Virus record (IMG/VR): IMGVR_UViG_3300033070_001349
Span: 84,483 to 148,482 of that record
Direction: 5' to 3' (one strand)
Length of the DNA: 64,000 nucleotides
DNA from: a virus
Lineage: Duplodnaviria > Caudoviricetes
In this document: piece by piece, positions 11,384-35,863 of the stretch
How the letters are laid out: every line of letters begins with the position of its first letter
How positions within the stretch are numbered: position 1 is the first letter of the stretch
Notes under the pieces: generated by a model
Seen by the model: the letters and a program-made list of their open reading frames with translations, nothing else
The model's database searches: none
What the model was told of the DNA's origin: nothing
Program-made: the position numbers and the translations under genes

Positions 11384-12295
11384 GTGCCGAAGAAGTCCAA
11401 GGTCGCGCCCTCCCCCTCCCCTGTGGTCGACTCCATCCTCGGGGAGATCGAGGCGGGGGCAGGGTCCCCCCAGGTCGCCATCCCCAAGGCGGCCCTGGCG
11501 GACATCGTTGTCCACGTCCCGGTGATGACCCCCCTCGATCGCATCGTCGAGACCGAGTGGAACACCAACGTCCAGAGCGGCGAGAAGTTCTCCGAGCTCG
11601 TGGAGGACATCAAGGTCAACGGCTTCTCCGGGGCGGTCGACGTGGTGCCCTTCACCGGGCCCGACGGCCACGAGTCCTACCTCGTGGTCTCCGGCGAGTG
11701 GCGCTGCAAGGCCGCCCGGCTGCTCGGCCTGAAGGAGATCCCCGCCTCGCGGCTCTCCCACGCGAAGTTTCAGGACGCGGACTTCCAGCGGATCCTCTCG
11801 ATCCGGCGCAACAACATCCACGGGCGGCACGACCCGGAGAAGACCCGCGCGCTCATCGAGCACCTCGCGAAGAAGTACCCCCAGTCGGATGAGCTCCGGC
11901 GGCTCCTCGCCTTCGACAAGACCGCCGAGTGGAAGCGCCTCGTGGGGGACACGCGGAAGTCCCTCAAGGGCCAGGGCGCTACCCAGGCCCAGCTCGCCCA
12001 GTTCGACGAGAAGGCGAAGAAGGCCAGGAGCCTTGCCGACCTCTCGGCCATCGTCTCCCACCTCTTCGACACGCACAAGGAGACGGTCCCCTGGGGCTAC
12101 ATGGCGTTCTCCTTCGGCGGGAAGGAGCACCTCTACGTCGCTGCCACCGCGCCGACGATGCAGGCTGTGAAGCGCATCGTGGCCCACTGCGGCGACCGCA
12201 ACCTGGAGATCAACTCCGTCCTCGGCCCGGCCCTCACGGAGCTCGCGGACCGGCTCGCGAAGGGTGTCGAGGGCCCCCTCCCCGGCGACTTCTGA
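11384..12295 (+). CDS. ParB/Srx N-terminal domain protein
   Basis: EWNTN...LVEDIKVNGFSGAVDV...YLVVSGEWRCKAARLLGLKEIP (GxxR box); start GTG 11384, 7 nt after TATAAC. Confidence 0.8.
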   Translation: MPKKSKVAPSPSPVVDSILGEIEAGAGSPQVAIPKAALADIVVHVPVMTPLDRIVETEWNTNVQSGEKFSELVEDIKVNGFSGAVDVVPFTGPDGHESYLVVSGEWRCKAARLLGLKEIPASRLSHAKFQDADFQRILSIRRNNIHGRHDPEKTRALIEHLAKKYPQSDELRRLLAFDKTAEWKRLVGDTRKSLKGQGATQAQLAQFDEKAKKARSLADLSAIVSHLFDTHKETVPWGYMAFSFGGKEHLYVAATAPTMQAVKRIVAHCGDRNLEINSVLGPALTELADRLAKGVEGPLPGDF

Positions 12296-12425
12296 CAGGG
12301 TCTCCCGTGTCGGTGCCGGGCGGCAACCGCACGCCGAACGACAGTCGGTCTCCGCGCGCTCGCGTACGTGCGCACGAGCGACCCCCTGGTGTCCCCTCGC
12401 GGAGTCGTGTAGCGTCTCGCCCGTT

Positions 12426-15400
12426 GTGAGCCCCCCGCCCATCCTGACCCACGGTGAGCTCCTCGCAGAGCTCAAGTCCTCGTCCACCTCAGGGGCCCTC
12501 ACGGAGGCGAAGCACTACCCGCCGGGGTACTGCAAGCTCATGGGGAAGGCCCCCCAGTGGGTCTACATCAAGACCACGGACCCCAAGAAGCCGTGGAAGT
12601 ATTACGCCACGCCCGGGACCGAGAAGGGGGACACCGCGCTCGCCAAGTCCAAGGTGTGGGACGAGGCGGCCGACAAGAAGGAGACCCTCGCGGCCAAGGC
12701 GGGGGTTGCGGTCCACACCGCGCAGGACCTCTCCGGCCTCCCCGACGACGCCAAGGCCGCCCTCAAGGGCGAGTTCGGTGACGACTGGCAGGACGAGCTA
12801 TCGAAGACCCTCACCGACCTCAAGTCCCTCGAAGGCGAGCTCGAAGGCGAGCACGACGAGTGGATGGCGAGCAAGGGCGGGGGGAAGGGCGGCAAGGCCA
12901 AGGCCTCGAAGCCCGCCGCCGCTACCGCTACCGCCGCCCCGGCCGCCGAGCCCGAGCCGGAGCCCGATGCCGCCCCGGCGACCGGGGAGCCCGCCGCTGA
13001 GCCCGAGAAGCCTTCCGCCGAGGAGCCCGCCGAGCCCGCGCCGGAGGCCCCCTCGGAGCCCGAGAAGCCCTCCGAACCCGAGGCCCCTGTCCCGAGTCAT
13101 GTGACTCCGAGCGAGGAGCCCCCGGAGCCCGCCCCGCCCGAGCCCGAGGACGGGACGCACCCCGGAGACGACATTCTCGCCCTCCTCAAGGGGGAGCCCG
13201 AGGCCCCGAAGGAGCCCGAGGCGTCGCCCGCCGAGGAGCCCGCCGCGGCGAAGGAGCCCGAGCCCGAGGCTCCGAAGGCCGAGCCCGACACCGCGACCGC
13301 GGCGTCCTCGACCCCTGTGGCGCCGGAAGCCGCGGGCGCGGTGCCGTCTGAGATCCCGGACGTGGCGGACCTCGCCTACGCCGGGAACGCCCAGCACCTC
13401 GGCGGGCAGTCGAAGAAGCACTACTTCACCGACAAGAAGGGCAGGAAGTACCTCTTCAAGACGGCCAAGGATGCGAACGACGTGCGCAAGCCGTGGGCGG
13501 CCCAGGCCGCCGAGCTCGCGTCGAGCATCCAGCGGAAGGTTCTCGGGAAGGGCGTGCCGGTCAAGGTCCTCTCGATCGGGGGGAGCACCGGGACGATCCA
13601 GCCCGTGATGGAGCTCGGTGACCCTCCGTCCCTCGTCTCGACGCCGCCGGAGAAGCTCACCCTCGCCGATGCCAACGCCGTAGCGCAGGAGCACGTCATC
13701 GACTGGGGCACCGGCAACCACGATGGTCACGGAGGCCAGTTCATCCGGCTCAAGGACGGAACCCTCGTCGGGATCGACAAGGAGCAGGCCTTCCGCTTCC
13801 TCGGGACCCCGGGGGAGAAGCTCTCGACGAGCTACGACCCGAACCCGGACACGCCCTACTACAACGGCTTCTGGACCGCCTTCGCCGCGGGCAAGCTCCC
13901 GGCCGCCTTCGACCCCAAGAGTGCCATGCTTCCGGCGCTCAACAGCATGATGGCGTTGCCGGACGCCGAGTACAAGGAAGGCCTCCAGGCCTACTTCGAC
14001 TCGCTTCCGGCCTCGGCAAAGGCCGCCCGCCCGGACTTCGTCGAGAAGGCCCTCACCCGCAAGGCGTCCCTCAAGAGCGACTTCGAGGGCTTCCTCACGC
14101 CGCTCTACCGGAAGAAGGAGGGCAACCCCAAGGGCAAGTTCACCTTCGAGCACGGATGGATCCCCGACGGCAAGGTCCCGAAGGGAGCCGCCCCTGCGGA
14201 GACCTCGCCGGAGACCCTCCCGGCCCCGGCGATCCCGAACCCGCTCGTGGTGGACCCGAAGTACCAGAGCTTCCTCGACGACCTCGCGGCGGCGTCCAAG
14301 GTCGACCTGTCGAACGCCGCCGACCTGAGCCCGGTGGGCATCGCCAACGTCGCTCTCGACCACCTCCCCGCCAAGCAGGCGAAGGCCCTCCAGGCGAAGT
14401 ACGGCGACCTCCACCCGTACCTCCAGGCAGGCCACGCGGCCTACAAGTTCGCGAAGAAGGACTACACCAACGGCGCTTCGCCCGAGGCCATCAACAACGA
14501 TCTGTCTACGGCGGACCCGCCCGTGGATGTGTCGGACTACCACGCCGTGTACAAGGCGCTCCGGCACTCTCCCAAGTACAAGGACGGGGGCCTCTACGCC
14601 CAGGCCTACGCCGCGGTGCACGGACCCGACTGGAAGGAGAAGATGGCGAAGACCGTCGCCGCCCTGAACGGGGTGGTCTCCTCCGAGCCGGAACAGGATC
14701 ATAAGGACGTTCCGACCTGGGAACCGACCGACGCCGACATCGACGCGATGGCCGCCGCCGCGGGCGAGCCCTCGGACCCCGAGCCCCCGACCGCCACGCC
14801 GACCCCCGGCACCCCCATCCTCTCGGGCCCTCCCGCTGTCGGGTCGGAGTCGTGGCCCCACGAGAAGTACAAGGGCCTCTCGGCCGCCGTCGCCGCCATC
14901 TCCGCGGGCAAGGGCAAGACCTCGGACGCCATGCTCAAGGCGTTTCAGGACGAGGACTACCCGAAGAAGTACGGCCCTCAGGTCGCCGACTGCATCAACG
15001 CGATCCGGGTCGCGATGGGCAAGCCCGCGTACCTCAAGCTCCCGGGCAAGGTCCTCACGCAGACCGAGCTCGAATCGCTCCACCAGCTCATCTCGAACGA
15101 CGCGGACGGCTTCAAGACCAACGCCACCGCCGGGGTCTTCAAGCTCTCGACCGACCAGCTTCACGCCGCGAACGCGATGCTGGCCTTCCGCGGCTACGGC
15201 CCGATCGGCGCGGCCGAGCCCGAGGAGCCTGCCTCCTCCGCTCCTGCCCCCTCCGCCCCGGCGATCGAGGCCCCGAAGAGCTCCAAGCCGGTCCACCTGA
15301 CCCCGGCGATGGTCGCCGCGGTGCCCTCCCTCTTCGACGGGTTCGGCACGGACGAGGAGTCGGTGGAGGCGATCGACACCGCCCTCAACGACGCCGCCGA

Positions 15401-18400
15401 GGCCATGGAGAAGGATCCGACCAAGGCGACGAAGGGTGAGATCAACCCGTGGGTCAAGGGGCTCATGGATGCCCACGGCGACCACTGGAAGACCGTCGCC
15501 AAGGCCGCCATCACCAAGATCAACACGAAGAAGGGCGACCCGGACGACCTCGTTCTGAACCCGCCCCAGATCCTCTCGTCCCACCTCAAGGAGCTCACCC
15601 CCTCGGAGGTGATCGCCAAGATCGAGGGCTATGCCGCCAAGGGCCTCGGCGGTGAGGCCTTGAAGTGGCTCCAGCAGATCAAGGCCAAGCACGATGAGGA
15701 CTGGGAGAAGGTCGCGACCCGCGAGCTCACCAAGCTCGCGTCCAACCTCACCGACCACGCCCCGATCGGCGAGCCCATCATCCCGGGCACCTCAGACCCA
15801 GAGGCCCCCGCGAGCCCTGTGGCTCCTCTGGGCGTTCCCCCGAAATCCGCCGGTCCGGTCCTCACACCGGCCCTCGTCGCCGCCGTGCCCCCCTCCATGT
15901 TGGGGTACGGCCCGGACGATACGGAAGCTCTCCTCCAGAACCTCGAAGGCGACCTCAAGCAGGGCATCACGCCCCTCGGGTCCATCGGCTCGTGGTCGAA
16001 GGCCCTCCACGGCATGTACGGCGACGAGTGGATCGCCACCGCGAAGGCCGCGGTACAGGCAGCGAACCACACCGAGGGGGACCCGAACGACCTCCTCACC
16101 AACGTACCCATTCAGATCACGCACCAGCTCGGGCCGGGCGGTCCCTCGCCGGAGCAGTACCTCCAGTTCATCCAAGGGAAGCATCACCAGGGCGGCAAGG
16201 GCCACCAGTGGCTCGAACAGGTGAAGGCGAAGCACCCTGACGACTGGAAGGAGGTCGCCCTCGGGAAGCTCAAGGCCATCGCCGCGAAGCACACCGATCA
16301 CACCCCGCTCGGCGCGGCCTCCGCGGCCCCGGCTGGGGCGAGCGACGACCCCCCGGTGCCCCCCACGATCCACCCCGAGGACATCACCGACGCGGACGCC
16401 GCCCTCGACTCCCTCGCGGACAAGCTCGCGAATCATCCCTCGGGTTCCATGCTCGGCCTCGGCCCCACCCTCGGGTGGGTTCAGGCGCTCAAGGACAAGC
16501 ACGGCGACCAGTGGAAGGACGCCGCGAAGAAGGCCCTCGGGTTCGCCTCCGCCGCGGAGTCCCCCTCGAAGACCTCCGGCCTCGAAGCGGAAGGGTCGGC
16601 CATCGCGAAGATGATGGCCGCGGGTGCCGCCGCCTCCTCGAAGGGCCTCACCCAGGCCCTCGGGCTCTCGAAGCCCGTCGACCCTATGGGGGTGGCCCAC
16701 ATCGCCAACACCATCGCCAAGGTCGCGGCAGCTTCCCAGGCGTCGACCCCGGACGAGCTCTTCGCGGACGTGCTCGACTCGAAGGGCGACGGCTACTTCA
16801 AGTCCTCCCTGGGCAACACCGCCGCGAGCGAGAAGGAGTGGATGGAGGCCGTCCAGAAGATGGTCTACGCCCACACGGCGAAGCACCCTCTCAAGCCCTT
16901 CGAGCCCCAGGCCGCTCCTGCCGCGTCCCCCGTCTCCCCGGAGAAGCACCTCGCGTCCCTCAAGAACCCGGTCCACGACCTCGCGAACTACCTCACCAAG
17001 GGCTCCAAGGCCTTCCCCCCGGGCGTCGACATTCCCCACGCGGTTCACGCCCTCGCGGGTGCCGTCATGGGCAAGGACGGCTCCCTGTCGCCCGAGGCGG
17101 AGGCGGCCCTCGGCCTCACGCACGAGTACGCGAGCTCGATCAAGGGCATCCTCGACCTCTCGGGGGCGAAGAAGAGCAAGGAGAGCTTCTCCAACAGCGC
17201 CTTCCTCGGCGCGGTGGCCGGTGGCTTCAAGATGCCCGAGGAGAAGCTCCTCGCGATGGTGAACGGGTACCTCGCCGCCAAGGGCGAGGACCCGATCGTG
17301 ACCGCCGCGCCGGGCACCCCGGCGGCGGCCCCGAGCGCCACCGACCCGGCCGTCTCCCCCGGCGTGGACGTTCTCTCTCACCCCAAGGTCTCGGCCGTCC
17401 TGACCGACCCCGCGAACACCACGCCCCACGCGGTCTTCCAGGGCCTCACGAAGCTCACGGGCCAGGGCATCGGCCCGAGCGGGTGGCCGAGCAAGGCCCT
17501 CGCCCAGTGGGCCATGTCGAAGGGCCTCACGTCCGGGCAGGCCACCGCCCTCGCCCACCCGAAGCTCTCGGCCATGGGCCTCGTCGGGGATCCTGACGCC
17601 ACCCCCTCGGCGGTCTACTCCAAGGTCGCGAAGCTCACCGGGGACAAGGCCAACGAGCTCTCCGACGAGCTCGGGGACTCCTGGTACTCGGACTTCCTCG
17701 ACGGGTGGTCCACCCTCCATTCGCAGACCGTCGGGTCGACGCAGAAGGCCCCTCACGGGGTGTGGGTCGGCGACTTCACCAACAAGTTCGCCAAGAACCT
17801 CCTCTCGCACGACGAGTCCCCGAAGGACTGGTACGCGGACCTCCTCCACTTCGACAAGTCGGTCAAGAACGCCCCCGACGACATCGTGCAGGGGTGGCAC
17901 CAGTGGAAGGCCAAGTGCGAGAAGGAGTACGGGCCGACCTGGAAGGAGAAGCTCGTGGCCGCCGCCGCGGCCTACCACGGCAAGGGCTACGACTCCCTCC
18001 CTGACGAGGTGAAGGCCAAGGTCCCGCAGACCACCGAGAAGTTCTACGCGGCGATGTACCCGAAGGGGAAGCCCGTCACCGGCTCCCACCTCGACCTCTT
18101 CAACGTCAACGGCGTGAAGCAGGCGATCGAGGACTACAAGAGCGGCTCCGCGTGGCCCGAGCACGCGGCGATCTTCGACGCCGCCAAGGCCTCCTACGGG
18201 CCCGGCTGGGAGTCGGCCTTCCTCGCCGACTACGCGGCCCACAAGGGGGAGCCCGTCCCCCACACCCCCGTGGCTTCGCATCCCTACGAGCCGGTCGACT
18301 CGCCCCTCGTGGACACGCTCTGGTCCGCCGGTTACGGCCAGACCGCCTCGCTCGCGTCTATCTCGGTGAACTACCCCGAGCTCGCGGACAAGTGGAAGGC

Positions 18401-21400
18401 GAAGTACGGGCCCGACGCGCAGACCCACATCCACCTCGCCATGGCGGCCAAGATCAACGGGGTGGTCTCGCCCTCCATTGCGGTCAAGCTCCTCGGGAAC
18501 AAGATCCCGGTCTCCCCGGAGATGCTCAAGGCCCTGGTTCCCACATGGGGAGCCTCGGGGGAGACGCCGGAGGGCTACGCGGCGCTCGTCAAGCAAAAGC
18601 TCGACACGCTCGTGAACTACGGGGGGCCGAACGCGGATAGCCTCAAGACCGAGGCGGGCGCCCTGGAGAAGCAGTACGGTCCCAACTGGCACCTCAAGCT
18701 CGCCCTCGGCGACTTCTTCGAGCAAGGGGAGAGCGCGGGTACCACCGTCCCGGCCACCCTCCTCCAGAAGGCCCTCGTCACGCACACGCCCGTGGCCCCG
18801 TCCGCCCCAGCGGCGGTCCCTGCTGCTCCCCCCAAGGACCTCCCCTACGAGGGTCCTGACTCCGAGCTCTACAAAACCATGGCCGTCTTCGGCGGGGACC
18901 CCCTGGGCGTGGAGGAGTGGATCGGCCAGGAGCCCAAGGCGGACGACATCGTCAACAAGCTCAAGGCGAAGTACCCGGGGAAGTGGGCGGCCCACGCCCA
19001 CCTCGCCCATGCCGCCCTCTCCGGTAAGGACCTCGCGAAGAAGCACGTCGACAAGCTCCTCGGGCCGAACGCGCCGTACCTCTCCGACGATCTGAACGAC
19101 GACCTCGGCCTCTTCGGGCAGACCTTCAAGGACCACGCGGAGGTCATGGCGCACCTCCAGAAGAAGGTCAGCAAGCTCAAGGACGAGTCCGCCGAGGAGG
19201 CGGAGAAGCTCAAGGCGAAGTACGGCCCCAACTGGCTCCACAAGATCGCGGCCCACTACACCGAGACGCCGGTCCCGCCCCACGTAGTCCAGGCCCTCCT
19301 CCATGGCCCGGAGGCTCCCCTCGCGGGCTCCGCTCCGGCTACCCCCAGCCCCGCCGCCGGAGCTCCCGCCGAGCCGCCCCCTGACCTCTCGAAGGCCAAG
19401 GCGTTCTACGCCGCCCATCCCGAGATCGTGGCGGCCATGGCCTCCATGACCCCGGCGGAGTTCGCCGACGCCGCCAAGGCCGCCCACGCCTACCCCGGCA
19501 CCAACGCCGCGTGGGTCAACGCCCTCAAGGGCGCCACGGACCACGGCTACGGGATGTTCACCCCGGCCGAGGAGATCATCGCCTCCGTCAAGGCCCTCAA
19601 GGACGCCGGGGGCATCCCCGCCGACGCGAAGAAGGCCCCCGCTCCGATCAACGGCCCGGTGACGACCGCGACCAACGCCCCTATGCCCGGCATGGCCGGG
19701 GCGATTCTCAGCAAGTCCTTCGGCCCATGGCACCCGGCCGCGGAGATGCTCAACGCAAGCCCCGAGATGCTCGCGAAGCTCATCGACGCTTCCGCGCACC
19801 CCTACGGATACATGAACGGCCAGGGGTTCGCCCACGCCTACGCCAGCAAGCTCGCGTACGGCCCCGACCACAACCCTCACACCCCGGGCGCCACCCCTCC
19901 TCCCCCCGGATGGGAGAAGGCGATGGTGGCCGCCTACGTGGCCCACCATTCGACCCACTACGTACCCTCGAACGACTACGAGCAGGCCGAGTACAAGCAC
20001 TCGGTCACGACGACGCTCCAGAAGCACCTCGACAAGTACGTCAAGTCGCCGTTCAAGGCCCCGGCCTTCCATCACGACAAGGCCTTCGCCGCCCTCACGG
20101 CCGCTGGGAAGAAGACGGTCATCGCCAACCTCCTCAAGAGCGGCCACCTCAAGCCCACGCTGTCCGCCGTTCAGCTCGCGAAGCTCCAGGCCGTCGCCAA
20201 GCAGATCGTCGCCCAGACAGCCCTTCACGGGGGCGACTCGACCAAGGCTCAAGAGGCGGTCCTGACCCCTGCGGTCGTGAGCGCCCTCAAGTCCTACGGC
20301 CCGTCCTGGCCCCACGCGGCCAACGTCTTCCTCAAGCATGAGGGGCACCCGCCGATCAAGGCGCTCCCGTCGGACTGGATCGACCCCTCCGCGGTCCCCC
20401 TCCCCCCGGCGCTCAAGGCCTTCTACGAAGCGCCGACCACGATCCCGGGCACCTCGCTTACACCGCCCTTCGCGGGGGGGCCCAAGCCCGCCACGCCCAC
20501 CCCTGCGCCCACCCCTGCGCCCCCCCCGAAGGCCCCGCCTCCGCCGCCCCCGGCCCAGGTGCAGAGCGCGGCCAAGGTGGTCACCAAGGGCACCCCGAAG
20601 GCGGTCAAGGCCGCCCCCAAGGACCCGGCGCCTGCCGGGTGGGCCACCGGCACGGCCGCCGAGCCCCCGGCCCCCAAGGTCGGCCTCATCCCGAGCCTCC
20701 CGAAGCCCTCGGCGCCGAAGGTCCAGGGCACGGGCACGCCCATCCACGAGGCCCACGAGTCCGCCCAGGCGGCGGCCCACCACCTCCCCGGCGGGCAGAA
20801 GAAGGTCGTCACCTCGACCGACGGGACGCAGTGGGCCTCGTACCTCCCGCACGACCACCTCGGGGCCCCCCTCGGGCCTTCGGGCGCCTCGGCCACCAAC
20901 CTCTTCCACGGCCTCGCCGGGTTCGTGAAGCCCGGCGCGTCCTACGCGGTGAGCGCGGACGACCACGCGATCCTCCACCCCCTGCCCGAGGGGACCAAGA
21001 GCCTCGACGGCGTGCCCCCGAGCGCCCTCTCCCCGGCCGAGCTCCAAGACGTGGCGACCGAGCACGTCCTCGACTGGGCCATGGGCATCCACGCGACCCA
21101 CGGCGGGACCCTCCAGCGCACCCCCGACGGCCGCATCGTGGGCACCGCGAAGACCCAGCCCTTCGTCCACGACGATCAGGATAAGCTCTCGCTCGACTGG
21201 CAGTCCCCGACCTCGACGAAGCCCTCGTACTACAACAAGTTCTGGCAGGACTGGGTCGACGGCAAGCACGACTTCGACCCCCACACGCTCAAGGGCGCGA
21301 TCGAGTCGATCGAGTCCGTCGACCCCAAGGGCTACGCCGACTCGCTCCGCAAGCACTTCGAGGCTCTCCACCCGGGCCAGCCCGACACGGTCTACGACCG

Positions 21401-23183
21401 CGCGCAGTCGGCCCTCTACCGCAAGGCCGGGGTCCGCGCCGACTTCGAGCGCTTCCTCACCGACGCCTACCGGCAGCGCACCGGCAAGAGCAAGGGCTTC
21501 TTCACCTTCGACGAGGGGTGGATCGAGGCGCCCGAGGAGCCCTACGAGGTGCCCGTCCCCATGGAGGAGTACGCGAGCAGCCAGGGCATCGAGACGACGG
21601 CCTACCAGGACTACTCGACGACGCCCCCGAAGCCCGACGCCTCGAAGCTCACGCTCAAGGTTCCGAAGAGCCACGACCTCACCAAGCTCACCGACCTCCT
21701 CTCGAAGGTCGGCGTGAAGATGCACGGGACGCCTGTGACAGGCAGCGCGAACCACATGGTCTTCGTGGACGCGCAGGAGTTCAAGAACACCAACTCCGGC
21801 AAGACGAAGACCGTCGTCCCCAAGGCCGCGTCGACCAACACCCCGACCCGCCCGCGGTACTTCCCCAAGGTGTTCCGGCCCAAGCCGGTGACGGACGCCA
21901 ACGCCCTCAAGACGATCGAGAGCCACGACTTCCACTACACCGGGAAGGCCCTCCACGCCGACGGGCCCGCGCTCGAAGGTCAGGTGATGAAGGTCAAGAA
22001 GCTCTCGGGGAAGAAGGCCCCGGAGTATCAGGTCTCCTTCAAGCTCCGCGAGCCCTACTGGGGGAATCTCGCCTCGGGCGGCGCCTCGGCCACCTTCGCG
22101 TACAAGCAGGGCACCTTCGATCCGGCGACGGGCGAGCTCGACCACGGCAAGACCAAGATCGACAGCGTGCCTTCTCGGAAGTGGGACGTGGGTTCCCACG
22201 AGGCTCACTTCGTCACCGACCCCTCTCAATATGCCTACAAGGGGACGATGGTCCTCCACCTCAAGCCCGCGAAGGGCCAGACGGTCGAGGCGGCTCTTCA
22301 CGAGGCCCTCGAAGGGGTGAAGCCCGGCCTCGGCGCGGACCTCCTCAAGCCCCCGAGCGCGGAGGACAAGGAAGTCGCCCGGCTCTCCCGTCTCCTCTGG
22401 GCCAAGGCGCCCCAGAGCTCGGACCAGCTCGACGCCCTCGAAGCCAAGAACCCCAAGGTTCGCACGGTGGCCGCGCTCAAGAAACGCCTCGCGGCGGCCA
22501 ACGTCTCCGAGGAGGTGCAGTCCCGCGTGGTCGAGCGCGAGGTCTACGACGGCCACCTCACGCACGTCCTCCCCGGCCGGGCGAAGAGCATGGGGTGCCG
22601 GATGCTCTTCCAGGGCATCGGCGACATCAACGGGGCCCTGAACCTCGCGGCCTCCGGGATCATGGGCATCCACGAGCGCAACCTCGCAGGCTACCCCAAG
22701 ATCGGCGGCTCCTACGACGCGGACGTGGCGAGCGGCTCCGCCGACGGGACCCTGTGCCGCGTCGCGACGGACGCCGCCATGAGTGCCAGCTTCAACAGTC
22801 ACGCCTTCTCGGGGGACTATCAGGCCATCATCGCCCCCGATGAGCTCGACCGCCTCGACGCCTATATGTACCTGGGCGACACGTACGGAAACTGCAAGAA
22901 GAGCTCCTCGTCGTGGACCGGCCGAAACACGGTGGAGGCGAACGTGGCCTCGCTCACCAAGGGGCACCAGTCGGGCAACGAAATCTCCTTCCGCAAGGGG
23001 ATCCACCGCAACCGCATCCTGCGCATCGTCACGCAGAGCGAGTCCTCGCGAAAGGCCTTCATCGACGGCGCCAAGGCCCGCGGCATCACCGAAGTGAACG
23101 GGATGCCCGTCGAGGACTACTGCGTCGTCGGGAACAACCTCGGGGACGCCTATAACAAGTACGTGAAGCCGCTGGGGTACTAG
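12426..23183 (+). CDS. giant (~3,585 aa) multidomain protein: HipA-like kinase, helical repeats, pseudokinase, possible ART-like C-terminus
   Basis: Single open frame with strong GC3; kinase motifs YLFK, AELAS, GNHDGHGGQF, GIDK at about 13380-14165; degenerate copy at about 20780-21525; start chosen where coding bias begins. Confidence 0.8.
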   Translation: MSPPPILTHGELLAELKSSSTSGALTEAKHYPPGYCKLMGKAPQWVYIKTTDPKKPWKYYATPGTEKGDTALAKSKVWDEAADKKETLAAKAGVAVHTAQDLSGLPDDAKAALKGEFGDDWQDELSKTLTDLKSLEGELEGEHDEWMASKGGGKGGKAKASKPAAATATAAPAAEPEPEPDAAPATGEPAAEPEKPSAEEPAEPAPEAPSEPEKPSEPEAPVPSHVTPSEEPPEPAPPEPEDGTHPGDDILALLKGEPEAPKEPEASPAEEPAAAKEPEPEAPKAEPDTATAASSTPVAPEAAGAVPSEIPDVADLAYAGNAQHLGGQSKKHYFTDKKGRKYLFKTAKDANDVRKPWAAQAAELASSIQRKVLGKGVPVKVLSIGGSTGTIQPVMELGDPPSLVSTPPEKLTLADANAVAQEHVIDWGTGNHDGHGGQFIRLKDGTLVGIDKEQAFRFLGTPGEKLSTSYDPNPDTPYYNGFWTAFAAGKLPAAFDPKSAMLPALNSMMALPDAEYKEGLQAYFDSLPASAKAARPDFVEKALTRKASLKSDFEGFLTPLYRKKEGNPKGKFTFEHGWIPDGKVPKGAAPAETSPETLPAPAIPNPLVVDPKYQSFLDDLAAASKVDLSNAADLSPVGIANVALDHLPAKQAKALQAKYGDLHPYLQAGHAAYKFAKKDYTNGASPEAINNDLSTADPPVDVSDYHAVYKALRHSPKYKDGGLYAQAYAAVHGPDWKEKMAKTVAALNGVVSSEPEQDHKDVPTWEPTDADIDAMAAAAGEPSDPEPPTATPTPGTPILSGPPAVGSESWPHEKYKGLSAAVAAISAGKGKTSDAMLKAFQDEDYPKKYGPQVADCINAIRVAMGKPAYLKLPGKVLTQTELESLHQLISNDADGFKTNATAGVFKLSTDQLHAANAMLAFRGYGPIGAAEPEEPASSAPAPSAPAIEAPKSSKPVHLTPAMVAAVPSLFDGFGTDEESVEAIDTALNDAAEAMEKDPTKATKGEINPWVKGLMDAHGDHWKTVAKAAITKINTKKGDPDDLVLNPPQILSSHLKELTPSEVIAKIEGYAAKGLGGEALKWLQQIKAKHDEDWEKVATRELTKLASNLTDHAPIGEPIIPGTSDPEAPASPVAPLGVPPKSAGPVLTPALVAAVPPSMLGYGPDDTEALLQNLEGDLKQGITPLGSIGSWSKALHGMYGDEWIATAKAAVQAANHTEGDPNDLLTNVPIQITHQLGPGGPSPEQYLQFIQGKHHQGGKGHQWLEQVKAKHPDDWKEVALGKLKAIAAKHTDHTPLGAASAAPAGASDDPPVPPTIHPEDITDADAALDSLADKLANHPSGSMLGLGPTLGWVQALKDKHGDQWKDAAKKALGFASAAESPSKTSGLEAEGSAIAKMMAAGAAASSKGLTQALGLSKPVDPMGVAHIANTIAKVAAASQASTPDELFADVLDSKGDGYFKSSLGNTAASEKEWMEAVQKMVYAHTAKHPLKPFEPQAAPAASPVSPEKHLASLKNPVHDLANYLTKGSKAFPPGVDIPHAVHALAGAVMGKDGSLSPEAEAALGLTHEYASSIKGILDLSGAKKSKESFSNSAFLGAVAGGFKMPEEKLLAMVNGYLAAKGEDPIVTAAPGTPAAAPSATDPAVSPGVDVLSHPKVSAVLTDPANTTPHAVFQGLTKLTGQGIGPSGWPSKALAQWAMSKGLTSGQATALAHPKLSAMGLVGDPDATPSAVYSKVAKLTGDKANELSDELGDSWYSDFLDGWSTLHSQTVGSTQKAPHGVWVGDFTNKFAKNLLSHDESPKDWYADLLHFDKSVKNAPDDIVQGWHQWKAKCEKEYGPTWKEKLVAAAAAYHGKGYDSLPDEVKAKVPQTTEKFYAAMYPKGKPVTGSHLDLFNVNGVKQAIEDYKSGSAWPEHAAIFDAAKASYGPGWESAFLADYAAHKGEPVPHTPVASHPYEPVDSPLVDTLWSAGYGQTASLASISVNYPELADKWKAKYGPDAQTHIHLAMAAKINGVVSPSIAVKLLGNKIPVSPEMLKALVPTWGASGETPEGYAALVKQKLDTLVNYGGPNADSLKTEAGALEKQYGPNWHLKLALGDFFEQGESAGTTVPATLLQKALVTHTPVAPSAPAAVPAAPPKDLPYEGPDSELYKTMAVFGGDPLGVEEWIGQEPKADDIVNKLKAKYPGKWAAHAHLAHAALSGKDLAKKHVDKLLGPNAPYLSDDLNDDLGLFGQTFKDHAEVMAHLQKKVSKLKDESAEEAEKLKAKYGPNWLHKIAAHYTETPVPPHVVQALLHGPEAPLAGSAPATPSPAAGAPAEPPPDLSKAKAFYAAHPEIVAAMASMTPAEFADAAKAAHAYPGTNAAWVNALKGATDHGYGMFTPAEEIIASVKALKDAGGIPADAKKAPAPINGPVTTATNAPMPGMAGAILSKSFGPWHPAAEMLNASPEMLAKLIDASAHPYGYMNGQGFAHAYASKLAYGPDHNPHTPGATPPPPGWEKAMVAAYVAHHSTHYVPSNDYEQAEYKHSVTTTLQKHLDKYVKSPFKAPAFHHDKAFAALTAAGKKTVIANLLKSGHLKPTLSAVQLAKLQAVAKQIVAQTALHGGDSTKAQEAVLTPAVVSALKSYGPSWPHAANVFLKHEGHPPIKALPSDWIDPSAVPLPPALKAFYEAPTTIPGTSLTPPFAGGPKPATPTPAPTPAPPPKAPPPPPPAQVQSAAKVVTKGTPKAVKAAPKDPAPAGWATGTAAEPPAPKVGLIPSLPKPSAPKVQGTGTPIHEAHESAQAAAHHLPGGQKKVVTSTDGTQWASYLPHDHLGAPLGPSGASATNLFHGLAGFVKPGASYAVSADDHAILHPLPEGTKSLDGVPPSALSPAELQDVATEHVLDWAMGIHATHGGTLQRTPDGRIVGTAKTQPFVHDDQDKLSLDWQSPTSTKPSYYNKFWQDWVDGKHDFDPHTLKGAIESIESVDPKGYADSLRKHFEALHPGQPDTVYDRAQSALYRKAGVRADFERFLTDAYRQRTGKSKGFFTFDEGWIEAPEEPYEVPVPMEEYASSQGIETTAYQDYSTTPPKPDASKLTLKVPKSHDLTKLTDLLSKVGVKMHGTPVTGSANHMVFVDAQEFKNTNSGKTKTVVPKAASTNTPTRPRYFPKVFRPKPVTDANALKTIESHDFHYTGKALHADGPALEGQVMKVKKLSGKKAPEYQVSFKLREPYWGNLASGGASATFAYKQGTFDPATGELDHGKTKIDSVPSRKWDVGSHEAHFVTDPSQYAYKGTMVLHLKPAKGQTVEAALHEALEGVKPGLGADLLKPPSAEDKEVARLSRLLWAKAPQSSDQLDALEAKNPKVRTVAALKKRLAAANVSEEVQSRVVEREVYDGHLTHVLPGRAKSMGCRMLFQGIGDINGALNLAASGIMGIHERNLAGYPKIGGSYDADVASGSADGTLCRVATDAAMSASFNSHAFSGDYQAIIAPDELDRLDAYMYLGDTYGNCKKSSSSWTGRNTVEANVASLTKGHQSGNEISFRKGIHRNRILRIVTQSESSRKAFIDGAKARGITEVNGMPVEDYCVVGNNLGDAYNKYVKPLGY
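13093..13108 (+). repeat. dispersed palindrome copy 3 (CGAGTCATGTGACTCC), in a Pro/Glu linker
   Basis: Core match. Confidence 0.9.
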
Positions 23184-23185
23184 AA

Positions 23186-23653
23186 GTGAGCGACCTCTTC
23201 CACACGCCGTGCATCCTCCACTGCGAGAACGACCCCTCGATCCTCGACCAGATCATCGTGGGCCTCCGCACCTACGCCCGCCCGATCGACGCCTCCCCCG
23301 GGGCGACGCTCGACGGGGTCGCCATGTACACGGCCGCCGAGCGGGGGCTCTTCATCCCCGGCGGGCCCCTCCGCAAGGCGGAGGGGGGCTCCTACCGCCT
23401 CACCGACGCCGCCCGCCGCAACCGGATGAACGTCCCCCTCCGGTGGAGCTTCACCCCCCTGACGCTCGAATCCTGGGACGCCTACCGGCAGAAGCACAAC
23501 GTGACCGGCGGGGACGTGCTCCGCGCCCAGGTGGGCGACACCAACGGCCTCCTCAACTTCTACCGCCAGGAGTTCCTGCCCAGGGGGTGGGAGGAGGAGT
23601 ACCTCAAGGATACGCGCGTCCCGCCCGAGGAGCCCGAGACCGACGACGCTTGA
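23186..23653 (+). CDS. hypothetical protein closely coupled to the giant gene
   Basis: Starts 2 nt after the giant gene stop; strong GC3. Confidence 0.7.
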   Translation: MSDLFHTPCILHCENDPSILDQIIVGLRTYARPIDASPGATLDGVAMYTAAERGLFIPGGPLRKAEGGSYRLTDAARRNRMNVPLRWSFTPLTLESWDAYRQKHNVTGGDVLRAQVGDTNGLLNFYRQEFLPRGWEEEYLKDTRVPPEEPETDDA

Positions 23654-23687
23654 CCATCGCGTCTCGTGTGATACATACGGCGGCCCC

Positions 23688-26600
23688 ATGGCGCTCTCCT
23701 ACGAGTTTGTGACCCGCGCCGAGCGCCTGGAGCACATCGCGAACGAGATCGCCGAGGCCGAGGTGGTGGCCCTCGACCTTGAGACCACGCCCAAGAAGCA
23801 GTGGTTGAAGCGCCAGGGGGCGGCCTTCTCGCCCCTGTACGGCGAGAGCCGCATCGCGTCGTTCAACACCGGCAAGGGGCGCTACGTCATCGACCTCTGG
23901 CAGACCGGGGGCCTCGGGCCGATCGCCAAGGCCCTCCACAACCCCACCGCCGCGGTCGGCAAGGGCCGCCCGGTGATGGTCCTCCAGAATTGCCTCACGG
24001 CCGACAGCCGGGTCCTCCTGGCCGACGGGTCCAAGGTCCGGCTCGACAAGCTGGTCCGGGACAAGCACCCCGGGCCGGTGCTGTGCCTCAACGAGGCGAC
24101 AGGCGAGATCGAGTCCAAGCCCATCGTCGGGTGGATCAAGGCGCCGGTTCGACCGTGGGAGGACTGGCTCCGGGTCCAGGTCCGGGGCAAGGGGTGCCTG
24201 CGGCTCACCAAGGACCACGTCGTCCTGACCCGGCGGGGCCGAGTACCCGCGGCGGACCTTCGCGTAGGGGATGAGATCCTCACCCGCTCCCCCGCCCTCA
24301 CCGCCGCCCAACGGGACCTCATCTTCGGGTCCCTCCTTGGGGATGCCTCTATCGTCCTCCAGGCTGAGTCCAAGGCCCGCTCCCCCCTCTTCCAGGTCTC
24401 GCATTCCGAGCCCCAGCGGGCCTACGTCGAGTTCAAGGCCCGGGTCATGGGCGACCTCTTCAAGGGCCTCTCCCGCGGGAAGCCCGCGAAGCGGGGCTTC
24501 GGGGCCCGCACGGGCGTCGTCCTGTCCTGCGCCAGGACCCGCTCCGACGCTCGACTGTGGCCCGTACGAGACGCCTGCATCCGCGAGGGCAAGAAGACCC
24601 TCACCCCCGAGTGGCTTGCCGAATTGACGTGGGCGTCCCTCGCCGTATGGTACTGCGACGACGGCTCCCTCGCGGGGCGAGGGGTCTCCGTTTGCGTGTC
24701 GAAGTTCGGGGAGACGGGCATCCCGCTCCTGGTCTCCCACCTCGAAGGGCTCGGCCTTCCGGTGGGGCTCACGACTCGCGAGGACGGCCACGTCTACCTC
24801 CACATGGCCGGGAGCAAGGGCGAGCGGCGCAACCCGGCCATGACCGGCTTCTGGGAGAACATCGCCCCGTGGGTTCCCCCCTGCATGGCGTACAAGCTCC
24901 CCGAGGAGTACCGCGAGCTCGCCTCCGAGACCCGGTGGATGGAACCTGAGGCCCCGAAGGTTGGGGCCGACACGGTGATCGAGATTCGCCCCCTGGCTCG
25001 GGAGCCCGGGGACGCCCGCCGTCACGGCGGGTTCAAGCGAGAGGGTCGCGGGCTCGCTCAATACTGTTTGACGGTGCAGGACAACCCCAACTTCTTCGTC
25101 GAGGGCCTGTCCGTAAGCAACTGCAAATTCGACCAGCGCTACCTACTCCACGAGTACGGGATCGAGCTCTGGCCTGTCTTCGACACCTTCCGCGCCTCGG
25201 CGATGATCCACAACGGGAAGGGGCTCGGTCACAACCTCTGGGACCTCTACGACCGCGAGCTCCAGATGGAGCCCTCCGTCGAGGACCTCGGCGGGTCCAA
25301 CTGGGGCTCGACCGTCCTGACGCAGCAGCAACTCGACTACGCCGCGGACGACATCATCTACCTGCCCCACCTCCGGGACAGCTTGAAGCCCAAGCTCGCG
25401 CGGCTCGGGCTCAACCGCGTGGCGCAGATCGAGTTCGGCGCCATCCTCCCCGAGGCAGTGGTCGAGCTCAACGGCTTCCCCTTCGACTCGGACGCATGGC
25501 TCGCCCTCGCGGCGACCAACCGCGCCGCCCGTGACAACCTCGGCCGGGAGATCCTCCGGCTCCTCCCCAACCCCTCGGGCCAGCTCTCCCTCATGGGGAG
25601 CGAGGAGTGGATGTACGGGCCCGATTGCCTCTCCGACTGGGCCGACTCCGTCACGGACGAGATGGAGGAGGCCGAGGGGGACGACAGCTCCGGGGGGTTC
25701 CAGGCCGCGTGGTACGAGGTTCAGGCCCAGCTTCGGCGGGCCGCTCGGCCCAAGGGGTCGAAGAAGACCGCGCACTTCAACCCCGATTCGCAGAAGCAGC
25801 TACTCGCGAGCCTCCGCCGGATGGGCGGGCCCCTCAAGGACCTCCCGGACACCTCCGAGGCCACCCTCTCGCTCTACGCGGCCAAGCTCCCGGCGATCAA
25901 GAAGCTCCTCGACTACCGAGAGGCGGCTACCCGGTGCAAGAGCTTCGGCCCCGAGTACCTCCAACACGTCAGTCCGGTCACCGGCCGCATCCACCTAGAC
26001 TACTACCCCCTCCTCGTCACCGGCCGGTACGCCCACCGGAACCCGAACCTCGGGCAGATCCCCAGGTACAAGCCCTTCCGCAAGTGCTTCAAGGTCAAGC
26101 CCGGCCGCCGGATGACCTTGTGCGACTACTCCATGGTCGAAATCGTCCTCATGGCCGAGCTCACCGGGGATAGGACCCTGTGCAGGCTGCTCCGCGAGGG
26201 CCGGGACGTGCACCGCTACGTCGCCTCGCGCATCCTGAACAAGCCCGAGGCGGACATCACGAAGGAGGAGCGGCAGCAGGCCAAGCCCGCCGACTTCGGG
26301 TTCATCTACGGCCTTGGCGCCGAGCGCTTCGTCTCCTACGCCCTCGTGGGCTACAACGTGGTGCTCACGCTCGAACAGTCGCACCACATCCGCAACACCT
26401 TCTTCGGTGAGTTCCCGGACATCGCGGATTGGCAGGAGTACGCCATCGCGAACGGCAAGCGGACCCACATGACGCGCTCGATCCTCGGGCGCCTCCGCTA
26501 CACCGGGGAGAAGGAGCACAACGAGTACCTCAACACGCCAGACCAAGCCTCGGGCGCGGACGGCCTGAAGATGGCCCTGCGGGACCTCCACTTCGCCCTC

Positions 26601-26807
26601 CGTAACAAGTTCGGCCCCGACGCGGTGAAGATGGTTCACCACGTCCACGACGAGACCATCCTCGAACACGCGGACGACCCGGACCTGGAGAAGGAAGTCC
26701 AGAAGGTTCAGTCCTCGGTGATGGTCGAGGCCATGTCCCGCATCGTGACGAAAGTCCCTGTGGTAGCGGAGTCCGCCTCCGGCTACTCGTGGGCCGACAA
26801 GGGCTAG
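23688..26807 (+). CDS. polA: family A DNA polymerase with 3'-5' exonuclease and intein
   Basis: ExoI DLET, ExoII QN/CKFD split by an intein, ExoIII YAADD; TGR..RNPNL, motif A DYSMVE, motif B RQQAKPADFGFIYG, motif C VHDE. Confidence 0.92.
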   Translation: MALSYEFVTRAERLEHIANEIAEAEVVALDLETTPKKQWLKRQGAAFSPLYGESRIASFNTGKGRYVIDLWQTGGLGPIAKALHNPTAAVGKGRPVMVLQNCLTADSRVLLADGSKVRLDKLVRDKHPGPVLCLNEATGEIESKPIVGWIKAPVRPWEDWLRVQVRGKGCLRLTKDHVVLTRRGRVPAADLRVGDEILTRSPALTAAQRDLIFGSLLGDASIVLQAESKARSPLFQVSHSEPQRAYVEFKARVMGDLFKGLSRGKPAKRGFGARTGVVLSCARTRSDARLWPVRDACIREGKKTLTPEWLAELTWASLAVWYCDDGSLAGRGVSVCVSKFGETGIPLLVSHLEGLGLPVGLTTREDGHVYLHMAGSKGERRNPAMTGFWENIAPWVPPCMAYKLPEEYRELASETRWMEPEAPKVGADTVIEIRPLAREPGDARRHGGFKREGRGLAQYCLTVQDNPNFFVEGLSVSNCKFDQRYLLHEYGIELWPVFDTFRASAMIHNGKGLGHNLWDLYDRELQMEPSVEDLGGSNWGSTVLTQQQLDYAADDIIYLPHLRDSLKPKLARLGLNRVAQIEFGAILPEAVVELNGFPFDSDAWLALAATNRAARDNLGREILRLLPNPSGQLSLMGSEEWMYGPDCLSDWADSVTDEMEEAEGDDSSGGFQAAWYEVQAQLRRAARPKGSKKTAHFNPDSQKQLLASLRRMGGPLKDLPDTSEATLSLYAAKLPAIKKLLDYREAATRCKSFGPEYLQHVSPVTGRIHLDYYPLLVTGRYAHRNPNLGQIPRYKPFRKCFKVKPGRRMTLCDYSMVEIVLMAELTGDRTLCRLLREGRDVHRYVASRILNKPEADITKEERQQAKPADFGFIYGLGAERFVSYALVGYNVVLTLEQSHHIRNTFFGEFPDIADWQEYAIANGKRTHMTRSILGRLRYTGEKEHNEYLNTPDQASGADGLKMALRDLHFALRNKFGPDAVKMVHHVHDETILEHADDPDLEKEVQKVQSSVMVEAMSRIVTKVPVVAESASGYSWADKG
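23991..25121 (+). mobile_element. intein (377 aa) with LAGLIDADG endonuclease, in the polymerase ExoII motif
   Basis: CLTADSRV start, LTKDHVVLT, FGSLLGDAS and AVWYCDDGS motifs, ends NFFVEGLSVSN with Cys at +1. Confidence 0.9.
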
Positions 26808-26868: not shown

Positions 26869-27387
26869 ATGAAGATCGCTCCCCTCGGTGACCGTGTTCT
26901 CGTCCGGCTCGACACGGCGGAGGTGTCGCGCGGCGGCATCTTCCTCCCCGGCGCCACCCTCATCACCGTGGGCCGCGGTGTGGTCGAGAGCGTCGGCCCC
27001 GGCCGCCTCGCCCCCTCCGTGACCTACATCGAGCCCGCCGACCTCACGGAGGACCTCGTCCACTTCGCCCTCCGGCACCGCGAGGAGCTCTCGAAGGGCG
27101 ACCGGCTCCCCATGGAGGTGAAGCCCGGCGACCGCATCCTCTTCCCGCAGGCGGCCGGGACCCCCCTGGAGGTCGACACCCCCGAGGAGTCCACCCCCGA
27201 GGAGCCCGCCGCGGTCCCTTCGGCCCAGGAGCTCCCCGTCGAGGAGCCCGCCCCGCGCCCCCTCCGCCGAACCAAGCGGGAGCGCTTCGTCCTCCTCCGC
27301 CACGACGACATCATGGCGGTCCTCTCGGGCGAGGGCGAGATCCACCAGCGGATCCCCGAGCCCGGTGAGCCCCTGCCCGGAACCTGA
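26869..27387 (+). CDS. groES: GroES-like co-chaperonin with two insertions
   Basis: MKIAPLGDRVLV, GGIFLP, GVVESVGPG, EVKPGDRILF, LLRHDDIMAVL. Confidence 0.85.
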   Translation: MKIAPLGDRVLVRLDTAEVSRGGIFLPGATLITVGRGVVESVGPGRLAPSVTYIEPADLTEDLVHFALRHREELSKGDRLPMEVKPGDRILFPQAAGTPLEVDTPEESTPEEPAAVPSAQELPVEEPAPRPLRRTKRERFVLLRHDDIMAVLSGEGEIHQRIPEPGEPLPGT

Positions 27388-27405: not shown

Positions 27406-28107
27406 GTGCCGAAGAAGCCCCCCGTCCTGACCAAGCCCAAGACGCCCTCGAAGGGGGAGGTCCTCGCCCAGCTCAAGGCCCTTCCGTGCTTCGAGGAGGT
27501 CAAGGCCAAGATCCTAGACGGGGTGCCGGTGCTTCAGGTGGCCCGGTGGATTCAGGACCAGGGCGAGTACGCCACCGCCTCGGAGGCCTCGCTCGCCAGG
27601 GCCCTCCACCGCTTCAAGGAGGAGCTACCTCCCGCGGCCTTCGTCCAGGCCGCCCTCCCGAAGGTCCACCAGGAAGCCCTCGCCGAGGTGAAGCAGGGCC
27701 TCGCCGAGGTGGACGAGTTGGCCCACCTCTACGCCTTGCAGAAGGGGCGGATCCACAAGCTCCTCAAGGTCGAGGAGACCATGCCCTCGATCCTCTTCCC
27801 GAACCTGTCCCAGGAGTTCCGCATCGCCGCCGAGCTCCTCCGCACCTCGGCGGAGCTCAAGGGCAAACTCGGGCTCCTCAAGCCGGGCCCGCGCGAGCCC
27901 TCCGGTGACCAGGGGGCGGGGGAGGAGGTCCCGATCGAGGACACGATCGAGGCCCTCGCCGCCGCCCACCCGACCGTCCCCGTCGCCGCCGTCTTCCGGG
28001 ACCCGGAGAAGGTCCACCGCATCATCGGGTTGATGAAGACCGTGTCGACCCTCCAGGTGATGGTGGAGTCCGCCCCCGCCAAGCTCGGCACCGGGGGCGG
28101 CCCGTGA
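27406..28107 (+). CDS. putative terminase small subunit
   Basis: N-terminal HTH-like segment plus coiled coil; GTGA overlap with TerL. Confidence 0.5.
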   Translation: MPKKPPVLTKPKTPSKGEVLAQLKALPCFEEVKAKILDGVPVLQVARWIQDQGEYATASEASLARALHRFKEELPPAAFVQAALPKVHQEALAEVKQGLAEVDELAHLYALQKGRIHKLLKVEETMPSILFPNLSQEFRIAAELLRTSAELKGKLGLLKPGPREPSGDQGAGEEVPIEDTIEALAAAHPTVPVAAVFRDPEKVHRIIGLMKTVSTLQVMVESAPAKLGTGGGP

Positions 28108-31100: not shown

Positions 31101-31112
31101 TACGAGCCCTGA
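28104..31112 (+). CDS. terminase large subunit with intein
   Basis: Walker A TGAIG/TGKS after splicing, Walker B VFLDE, nuclease HIDPSLTGDSTG, ITMDSFQS, KVDHPPMGSKDCADAV. Confidence 0.9.
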   Translation: MIDIRGGRARSIREQSEVEAALREELKGLTPEELAVLDLLLKEQGKAPLPGVDPGLSVLRALERTEWKVPPVDMRTFIYDPYYLGESCGELYPSHYADLSELFDRGGYHEALWTGAIGCLRGDTPVHDPVTGITASVEARYQEGRPFHVWSRSDAGPVIAEAWAPLRYPEAPMFRVTLDTGESCVVTPEHRFWDGFRWVTASEVRERLRGSELVLLPSSSDIVPSTRARGALRSTRRVPGSPGGCRPGLRSDGGRPPSDREDARGWSPSRGDALGRTRGYPRSDGQGEGGAHSRTCRASAPPSTTSSSLLSGPDAEALLLALEGRRPPGSDSIRRVRRLLAACALLGTALGLGPDAHPSIAPQGCRASRASIGPSWGELYPDGSEWTRTAARVVSVETEAPEPYFDFHVPIHNNYAAAGLWHHNTGKSFSASVGVCRVLYEISCMRDPHGAFHIARHSPIHLVCLSVTEDLAIKVAFDYIIEKIQLSPYFRENFPYRPGKKEFLFPNKVSLAARATTDTSALGLNVISVFLDESDFIKKPGKAKLAAGEKDTAERIYAKLKRRVKSRFQRNGRLPGMLFIVSSKRRTDDFSARHIEKSRHDPTVFVSDKSLWDVKPESYSKERFHVFVGNESLPSKILEPAEVETYRAVAEGKDTCVVLEVPEDFRPDFERELEEAIRDIAGVATVSIAPFIQRRERIQAAADYGDANGLLHPFSTVEYVPGSGAEFLWGILAETYSHPLSEGGYETKWRPRLNPWAARHVHIDPSLTGDSTGLAIGHVAGYKEVLRRDSNHRIYAEKAPVIVIDLILRIVPPLGDEIILGDVRALVYQWAEHGFRLAKITMDSFQSADGLQQMAQKGYSAEVYSVDRTPTAYEMLKTALYEGRLIYYGYPKLLEELRKLEKNHVTHKVDHPPMGSKDCADAVAALVATLSGVIADVATDPLPMLRGLSYSPELVSPSAASTPAQAAQVAHAPVSDRVASAPLGMVAPEPHDSNPYGAEYEP
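28690..29229 (-). CDS. HNH homing endonuclease nested antisense inside the TerL intein
   Basis: N-terminal HTH (LELYREGHTLPEVAALVGSSRNRV), WKGGR, GYV...HP...GYVREHRLVME..LGR.L...EVVHHRNGDPADNRPENL. Confidence 0.85.
   Translation of the reverse strand: MTARWTPEKPCNLGARWTDERRARALELYREGHTLPEVAALVGSSRNRVAAALRALGEEPRRRGPREGRNWSWKGGRMLDKSGYVLLLRPDHPNADSHGYVREHRLVMETTLGRLLDPKEVVHHRNGDPADNRPENLELFASNGEHLAHELKGRCPNWTEAGQARILAGVRGPRKRSPT
29237..29265 (-). promoter_or_regulatory. candidate internal promoter for the antisense HNH gene
   Basis: On -: TTGTCC-17 nt-TAGAGC-7 nt-ATG, the same geometry as other leaderless promoters here, but with an imperfect -10. Confidence 0.4.
31067..31082 (-). repeat. 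dispersed palindrome copy 5, in the TerL tail just upstream of the portal gene
   Basis: GGAGCCACATGACTCC. Confidence 0.9.
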
Positions 31113-31116
31113 CGCC

Positions 31117-35706: not shown

Positions 35707-35863
35707 AGGCGTGGCGGCTCCGGCGGACGGCCTACTCCTCGGGTCGCCGCGAGCGCATCGGGTACAAGGCCCCGAAGTTCGGGGCGAAGCGGACTGCCAC
35801 CTTCGCCCCCTCCGTGCTCCCGACAGAGTTCCGACGCAAGCGATCGAAGCGGTACTAGACACG

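Follow-up and report, generated by a model that had tools for sequence, protein, structure and literature searches.

The window analysed here is a stretch of 64,000 nucleotides, the last 64 kb of the 148,482-bp IMG/VR virus record IMGVR_UViG_3300033070_001349 (70% G+C, completeness estimate 78%), from a T4-like phage. Between a ParB-like gene and a DNA polymerase gene it carries one giant gene (12426-23183, plus strand), whose product is made up, from its N-terminus, of a short leader, a small conserved domain, an acidic linker, a catalytically complete kinase-like domain, a long array of helical repeats, a degenerate second copy of the kinase, and a C-terminal module that includes a fold like that of the ADP-ribosyltransferase (ART) DarT. 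We give a probability of roughly 55% to the reading that this giant protein is a head-packaged, injected multi-enzyme effector of the phage, analogous to T4 Alt but far larger.

The open frame spans 12264-23183 and has a G+C content at third codon positions (GC3) of 0.94. A start at 12264 was rejected: its opening 54 codons are rich in Arg and run over the 3' end of the ParB-like gene, and the GTG at 12426 is thus the likely start. The protein read from there has 3,585 residues, exactly as many as the database representative. The single gene called by the first-pass annotation, which had worked without database searches, is confirmed. The long open reading frames (ORFs) on the opposite strand fail the GC3 test and are shadow frames of the kind that high-GC DNA commonly shows. 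A phmmer search over 1.84 billion representatives returned 1,209 clusters (at 50% identity) with E <1e-3. Nearly all of these relatives are proteins of 1,000-4,400 residues, and many have two tandem kinase copies, usually both intact. Searches of Pfam, PHROGs and NCBIfam with the whole protein and its pieces gave nothing usable.

The first kinase domain (residues 300-590, 13323-14195, plus strand) was modelled with AlphaFold (AF2) from a 113-sequence alignment, at a predicted local distance difference test score (pLDDT) of 95.4 and a predicted template modelling score (pTM) of 0.92. The motifs LGGQS (residue 325), YLFK (342), AELAS (362), EHVIDWGTGNHDGHGGQF (422) and GIDK (449) all lie where the first-pass annotation had placed them. 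Its view of this domain as a kinase fold with a full catalytic set is borne out by the model and by Foldseek matches to PI3K/VPS34, PI4KII-alpha and ordinary protein kinases, with kinase matches numbering in the hundreds. K345, D433, Q438 and D451 are all present; glutamine at position 438 is found in 29 other family copies as well. Across the 189 copies of the family alignment, D433 is kept in 181, D451 in 183, K345 in 175 and D426 in 185, and position 438 is N or Q in 183.

In an exhaustive structural search, the best matches of this domain were PI4KII-alpha (Z 14.2) and H. pylori CtkA (Z 13.5), followed by Fam20 (Z 11.8), actin-fragmin kinase (AFK, Z 11.7), CotH and MavQ (both Z 10.7), VPS34 (Z 10.5) and HipA (Z 10.3, with a second HipA entry at Z 9.0). 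A HipA_2 cluster of the Protein Atlas also matched the fold, with a template modelling (TM) score of 0.64. Judged from its model and from this ranking, domain 1 is an atypical protein-kinase-like domain of the PI3/4K-AFK-HipA assemblage, to which HipA appears to be a cousin and not the parent family. The earlier label of HipA-like is thus correct at the superfamily level only, whereas PI4KII-alpha and CtkA rank higher and Pfam searches with the full-length protein and with its pieces gave no hit to the HipA_C model (PF07804), even at E 10. Sub-threshold HipA_C matches were seen among relatives, in Onyinye gp16 (18.2 bits, cut-off 30.5) and in 1 of 25 relatives. The domain shares with PI4KII-alpha, CtkA and HipA the Gly-rich loop, the beta-3 Lys, the H-D-x-H-x-x-N catalytic loop and the metal-binding Asp. 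It differs from them in matching no Pfam kinase model, in lacking a HipB-type partner, and in motifs of its own (LGGxGK, EHVLDW..SQHDSH..N and GIDKEQ). The PI3/PI4-kinase model PF00454 has no Pfam match in the giant protein, the likeness being at the level of fold only; no PDB entry was matched by sequence with single sequences or profiles; and neither a HipB-type antitoxin nor a HipA N-terminal domain was found among the neighbouring genes or inside the protein. The predicted fold alone does not separate a lipid from a protein substrate.

The first-pass annotation had overlooked the C-terminal module (546 residues, 3040-3585), which is the usual partner of the kinase in this family: in 107 of 150 relatives it follows the kinase directly and ends the protein. 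Its model, built from 70 sequences, has a pLDDT of 93.8. The front part (residues 3041-3380, 21546-22565, plus strand) comprises beta-rich domains and a helical hairpin, with weak fold matches only. Behind it, residues 3381-3575 (22566-23150, plus strand) adopt in the model a DarT-like ART fold. The four best VIA matches of this region (model residues 342-536) were all DarT chains, with Z 11.8, 11.7, 10.6 and 9.7, followed at Z <=7 by other ARTs, namely CopC/OspC3, Tpt1, CteC, Scabin, pierisin and pertussis toxin; the best Foldseek match was DarT1 with NAD+ (8baq; probability 1.00, TM by target 0.61). In module numbering, G398, R437, D446 and E480 are invariant in the family, and E480 (residue 3519 of the protein) opens a beta strand near the expected place of the ART catalytic Glu. 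From the fold and this invariant Glu, the domain is predicted to be catalytically competent. A conserved tail with the family consensus Y.KYVKP.GY, followed by the stop codon (23151-23183, plus strand), closes the gene. Pfam has no match on residues 3040-3585, the PDB none by sequence or profile, and cultured phages none by tblastn. A fold search of BFVD gave only weak matches (E >1e-3) to uncharacterised proteins of giant viruses, baculoviruses and iridoviruses.

Between the repeats and this module stands the second kinase copy (residues 2760-3040, 20703-21545, plus strand), which aligns with the first at 39% identity over 180 residues (BLASTP, E 1e-32). It was described from the outset as homologous but dead, rightly so: set against the 188 other copies of the family, it has Ala at D433, Ala at D451 and Thr at N438, and Tyr occupies the position of the ATP-binding K345. 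D426, H432, H435, K452 and Q454 are retained. Such degenerate copies are otherwise rare, recurring in about 8 other proteins. A model of the pseudokinase in complex with the C-terminal module scored 0.64 by ipSAE, the interface score used for complex models (0.65, 0.64 and 0.39 in three runs, 0.00 in all three controls), with at least 35% of contacts shared between runs and a partner pLDDT of at least 79. In calibration, 58 of 80 solved complexes and 2 of 110 mismatched pairs attained the mark set for such models, figures that apply only roughly because our own alignments were used. In the modelled interface the helices of the kinase C-lobe (residues ~2967-3005) meet module residues 105-110 and the terminal tail KPLGY, of which module residues 542-545 touch the C-lobe.

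The first-pass annotation had taken the dead copy for a regulator or decoy of the intact one. That the protein is a HipA-type toxin kinase, restrained or mimicked in this way within the same chain, we hold to be improbable. It would suit the homology of the two copies, the weak HipA_C matches in two relatives and the presence of HipA and HipA_2 among the fold matches. Against it stand the missing HipA_C match and the closer folds of PI4KII-alpha and CtkA, and also the tandem pairs of the relatives, mostly two intact copies. Moreover, the dead copy lies 2,170 residues from kinase 1 and directly adjoins the ART module, its predicted binding partner. In a related phage, the 1,796-residue orthologue P0110 (L005:4799-10189), which occupies the same genomic position and is the closest relative of the C-terminal module, has nine helical repeats and then a degenerate kinase (the equivalents of D433R, N438R and D451G) before its ART module, and no intact kinase copy. 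That only the degenerate copy is kept beside the ART module is consistent with a structural role of the kinase fold that outlasts catalysis, and inconsistent with a decoy for kinase 1. On the complex model and on P0110, a pseudokinase serving as a docking scaffold for the C-terminal module appears more likely than a regulator or decoy of kinase 1.

A side observation concerns an I-x-E|A site just ahead of the pseudokinase, at residues 2773-2775 of the giant protein (P0001; window ~20742-20750). A cut at this site would free the pseudokinase together with the ART module (~810 residues) from the part containing the kinase and the repeats.

The pairing of kinase and ART is recurrent among the relatives. 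Tblastn of the kinase against cultured phages matched 12 mycobacteriophage records only; among these phages, McProf gp54 consists of VG15, the same kinase and ADPrib_exo_Tox, and is encoded directly after the portal gene, and Onyinye gp16 consists of the same kinase and ADPrib_exo_Tox. One relative carries DRAT. Copies of the kinase in prophages are found mostly in Bacillota genomes. In IMG/VR, 326 contigs have a relative, and the gene order RecA ... orf334, ParB-like, giant gene, small ORF, PolA, orf233, terminase, portal is common to about 35 of the best 80. The giant gene therefore belongs to the syntenic core of an uncultured T4-like clade.

The evidence for delivery from the virion starts with the leader (residues 1-28, 12426-12509, plus strand), a candidate propeptide or capsid-targeting segment, judging by motif conservation, with LAE at residues 13-15 and LTE|A at 25-28. 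Behind the putative cleavage site lies a small domain (PPG...W.YIK...KPWKYY; 12510-12740, plus strand) that is common to the N-termini of the relatives. Cleavage by the T4 protease gp21, which cuts after L/I-x-E, frees its substrates of N-terminal propeptides 7-65 residues long, and Alt is an ART that is packaged and ejected (PMC9026906). The first-pass annotation had likened LTEA to a gp21-type site, and this is credible: 51 of 140 relatives have an L-x-E|(A/V)K motif, with a median position of 22, versus 2.7% per internal 70-residue window, and a Peptidase_S77 gene for a T4 gp21-type prohead protease, the presumed processing enzyme, lies 12.5 kb downstream (35711-37222, plus strand; Pfam E 6.6e-13). 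T4-like syntenic loci have the motif more often (13 of 32) than other loci do (6 of 45), and within the giant protein internal [LI]xE sites are depleted (10 observed vs 21.4 +/- 4.4 in shuffles). Genome-wide, an N-terminal [TLIE]L[AT]E is found in only 7 of 136 ORFs: those of the major capsid protein and the giant protein have it, as do a single small ORF and four members of a candidate cargo operon. Elsewhere, the kinase fold is found (TM 0.75-0.85) in Atlas clusters that are 100% Phage_Mu_F head-morphogenesis proteins, and it also matches, at TM 0.62, an Atlas cluster carrying MuF plus DRAT or ADPrib_exo_Tox. By analogy with Alt, the conserved N-terminal L-x-E|A-K site and the S77 protease of the same genome suggest packaging and ejection.

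Upstream of the window (G000:C1:46507-50540) we noted consecutive ORFs that have a leader in common, e.g. NRRTLAEMMNLSE, NHGTLTEMMRLAE and MDARTLTEMAALAD, containing L-x-E sites. From their sequences, these ORFs are candidates for capsid-targeted cargo. They are not Arg-poor, unlike the giant protein.

Several points weigh against an injected, enzymatically active effector. The strict leader motif is present in only ~40% of syntenic relatives, L-x-E being a short motif, and a MuF or portal domain is not present in the giant protein according to Pfam. The gene lies in a replication-type neighbourhood, between the ParB-like gene and DNA polymerase, yet only ~5 kb upstream of terminase. All of the evidence for packaging is circumstantial, and virion delivery is what we infer from it. 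As to the enzymes, the catalytic assignments of both ART and kinase are predictions from fold and conservation; conservation of the ART beta-1 Arg/His position in the family is not strong; and the DarT model PF14487 is unmatched across the whole phage record at E 10. The same neighbourhood, conserved in about 35 loci, together with the missing MuF or portal domain, would fit a cytoplasmic enzyme that is made in the infected cell, is not packaged and works with the replication module (ParB-like, PolA, RecA), for instance as a modifier of DNA and proteins, whether the host's or the phage's. This we regard as unlikely, if worth keeping in mind, given the conserved N-terminal L-x-E site and the depleted internal ones, the fusion of the same kinase to MuF elsewhere, and the terminase and portal genes just downstream on the same strand.

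The regions outside the catalytic modules are unusual in their composition. An acidic linker rich in Pro, Glu and Ala (residues ~150-299, 12873-13322, plus strand), recognised from its translation and composition, precedes kinase 1. Behind the kinase, an iterated hidden Markov model and a motif list identified about 15 degenerate helical repeats of ~65 residues with the motif K-A-K-[YH]-G-x-x-W (residues 697-2645, 14514-20360, plus strand). The same repeats occur in P0110 (9 copies) and in ten other relatives. The whole protein has 8.5% K, 14.8% A, 9.7% P and 1.2% R, as against 3.9-12.7% R in 27 neighbouring genes, in line with the early remark that it is Lys/Ala/Pro-rich and Arg-poor unlike its neighbours. 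Part of the array falls in a stretch of 1,798 residues, between residues 1099 and 2898, without a single Arg, for which a simple calculation gives a chance of ~1e-65 at a neighbour-like 8% Arg. The whole family shows this avoidance, with medians of 1.0% R and 9.4% K outside the two catalytic modules and with <1% R in half of the members. McProf gp54 (10.0% K, 2.3% R) and Onyinye gp16 (11.6% K, 1.3% R) show it as well, with 5.7-8.7% R in their neighbours. In the first 200 residues of McProf gp54, which include the VG15 head domain (residues 7-203), Arg is higher, at 6%. A link of Arg depletion to the DarT-like module was considered and could not be separated out, as members without the module are possibly truncated contigs. 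The lysine codon in the giant gene is almost always AAG, and the AT skew, near 0 across most of the window, is about +0.2 over the gene (window 12001-24000), which reflects a coding strand rich in AAG-Lys, Ala and Pro.

Two explanations of the Arg avoidance each fit in part. One is self-protection against a tethered Arg-directed enzyme; the ARTs fused to the kinase in relatives, DRAT and ADPrib_exo_Tox, are of Arg-specific families, and this lends itself to the self-immunity variant. The other is a need for weak DNA contacts in a cargo that must exit the capsid, which is favoured by the higher Arg of the VG15 part of McProf gp54. A general Arg rule for cargo is disfavoured by the other candidate cargo ORFs, in which Arg is at normal levels. 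One might speculate, very tentatively, that the near-total Arg avoidance, seen in the family no matter which type of ART is attached, is a functional rule of an injected cargo class, for self-immunity or for capsid exit, and that in either case the DarT-like domain provides a T4-like phage clade with an injected nucleic-acid or Arg ADP-ribosylase acting with the kinase. A compositional constraint of this extremity over the spacer, with its ~15 helical repeats, could also point to a mainly structural protein of the head core or the ejection conduit, its length set by the repeat array and its enzyme domains accessory or vestigial. The length of the relatives, which ranges from 959 to 4,395 residues through changes in non-catalytic regions, would agree with such a role. 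However, the catalytic Asp residues are retained in 96-97% of the 189 kinase copies, the ART module has invariant residues, and the 959-residue relative, which consists of leader, small domain, kinase and module, has almost no spacer. We therefore find a mainly structural protein distinctly unlikely.

Under the favoured reading of a packaged and injected effector, the giant protein would be synthesised late and directed to the prohead core by its N-terminal leader. The S77 prohead protease would trim it after L-x-E, and it would then stay in the head with the DNA until its ejection into the next host cell. Once inside, the intact PI4KII/CtkA-like kinase may phosphorylate host targets, and the DarT-like ART may spend host NAD+ in modifying a host macromolecule, either DNA or protein, so that the host would be taken over or its defences disarmed. 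The dead kinase copy would have been kept because its C-lobe is where the ART module docks, together with the C-terminal tail of that module, and the helical repeat array would act as an expandable spacer.

Both polyvalent proteins and ARTs packaged in phage heads are established in the literature (PMC5512222, PMC9503650), and the giant protein extends this theme; its domain map is well supported, and the delivery route is the inferred part. With T4 Alt and the internal proteins (PMC9026906) it has in common a T4-type head module with an S77 protease, an N-terminal L/I-x-E site and an ART as (here putative) head cargo. It is five times larger than Alt, its ART has a DarT-like fold and not one of the Alt/VIP2 type, and it adds a kinase, a pseudokinase and a repeat array. 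With the polyvalent proteins (Iyer et al. 2017, PMC5512222) and the MuF polymorphic toxins (Jamet et al. 2017, PMC5576092) it shares the combination of several effector domains in one giant phage polypeptide, in which ARTs are frequent, and a small downstream ORF as a candidate immunity gene; relatives of the giant protein are themselves fused to MuF. It differs in having no MuF domain of its own, and MuF toxins were reported in temperate phages, whereas the phage studied here is probably virulent. A kinase has been described in polyvalent proteins of elements from Verrucomicrobia and Bacteroidetes, where it has lost its C-terminal subdomain (PMC5512222). The helical C-lobe is kept in the giant protein, and on account of this difference and of the other lineages involved the two kinases appear to belong to different families. 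The word 'kinase' is absent from PMC5576092. The phage T7 kinase (PMC13645617) is similar in being phage-encoded and in its proposed broad action on the proteins and defences of the host, but it is of another kinase family, is expressed after entry rather than carried in the virion, and has no attached ART.

The closest relatives by fold of the last ~200 residues are the four DarT structures of the DarTG systems (Z 9.7-11.8). The ART differs from them in matching no PF14487 model and in being fused to the end of a giant phage protein, where DarT is a stand-alone toxin. No DarG macrodomain or NADAR partner was detected, and the adjacent 155-residue ORF family is without a Pfam or PDB match. A DarT-like fold serving a phage instead of opposing it would, if true, reverse the known role of this type of enzyme. 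More generally, a large family without a Pfam, PHROG or NCBIfam model is now defined, in which an atypical kinase is paired with ARTs in giant phage proteins. The literature searched, coverage of which was incomplete, yielded no account of this kinase-ART family, of its Arg avoidance, or of McProf together with an ADP-ribosyltransferase. Cultured mycobacteriophages with the same kinase (McProf, Onyinye and Phrappuccino) make packaging, the kinase targets and the Arg rule directly testable.

The small gene directly downstream of the giant gene (23186-23653, plus strand; 155 residues) is conserved in place, with a homologue there in at least 20 of 32 syntenic loci. It matched nothing in Pfam, in the PDB (by single sequence or profile) or in the Protein Atlas. 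Small candidate immunity ORFs follow MuF toxin genes in 89% of cases (PMC5576092), and by analogy it is a reasonable guess that this ORF is a candidate immunity or chaperone partner. Elsewhere the phage encodes a T4-type head module consisting of a portal Gp20 with an intein, the Peptidase_S77 prohead protease, a Gp23 capsid protein and a tail sheath, along with RecA, RuvC, the ParB-like protein, an intein-bearing family A DNA polymerase and a GroES homologue. Among cultured or deposited phages, even the nearest capsid proteins share only 27-35% identity with this one. The GroES (Cpn10) gene (26869-27387) lies between the DNA polymerase and terminase genes and is conserved in the related contig L005. 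Inteins with LAGLIDADG or HNH endonuclease signatures were observed in four essential genes, those of the helicase (1804-4470), DNA polymerase A (23688-26807), the terminase (28104-31112) and the portal (31075-33903).

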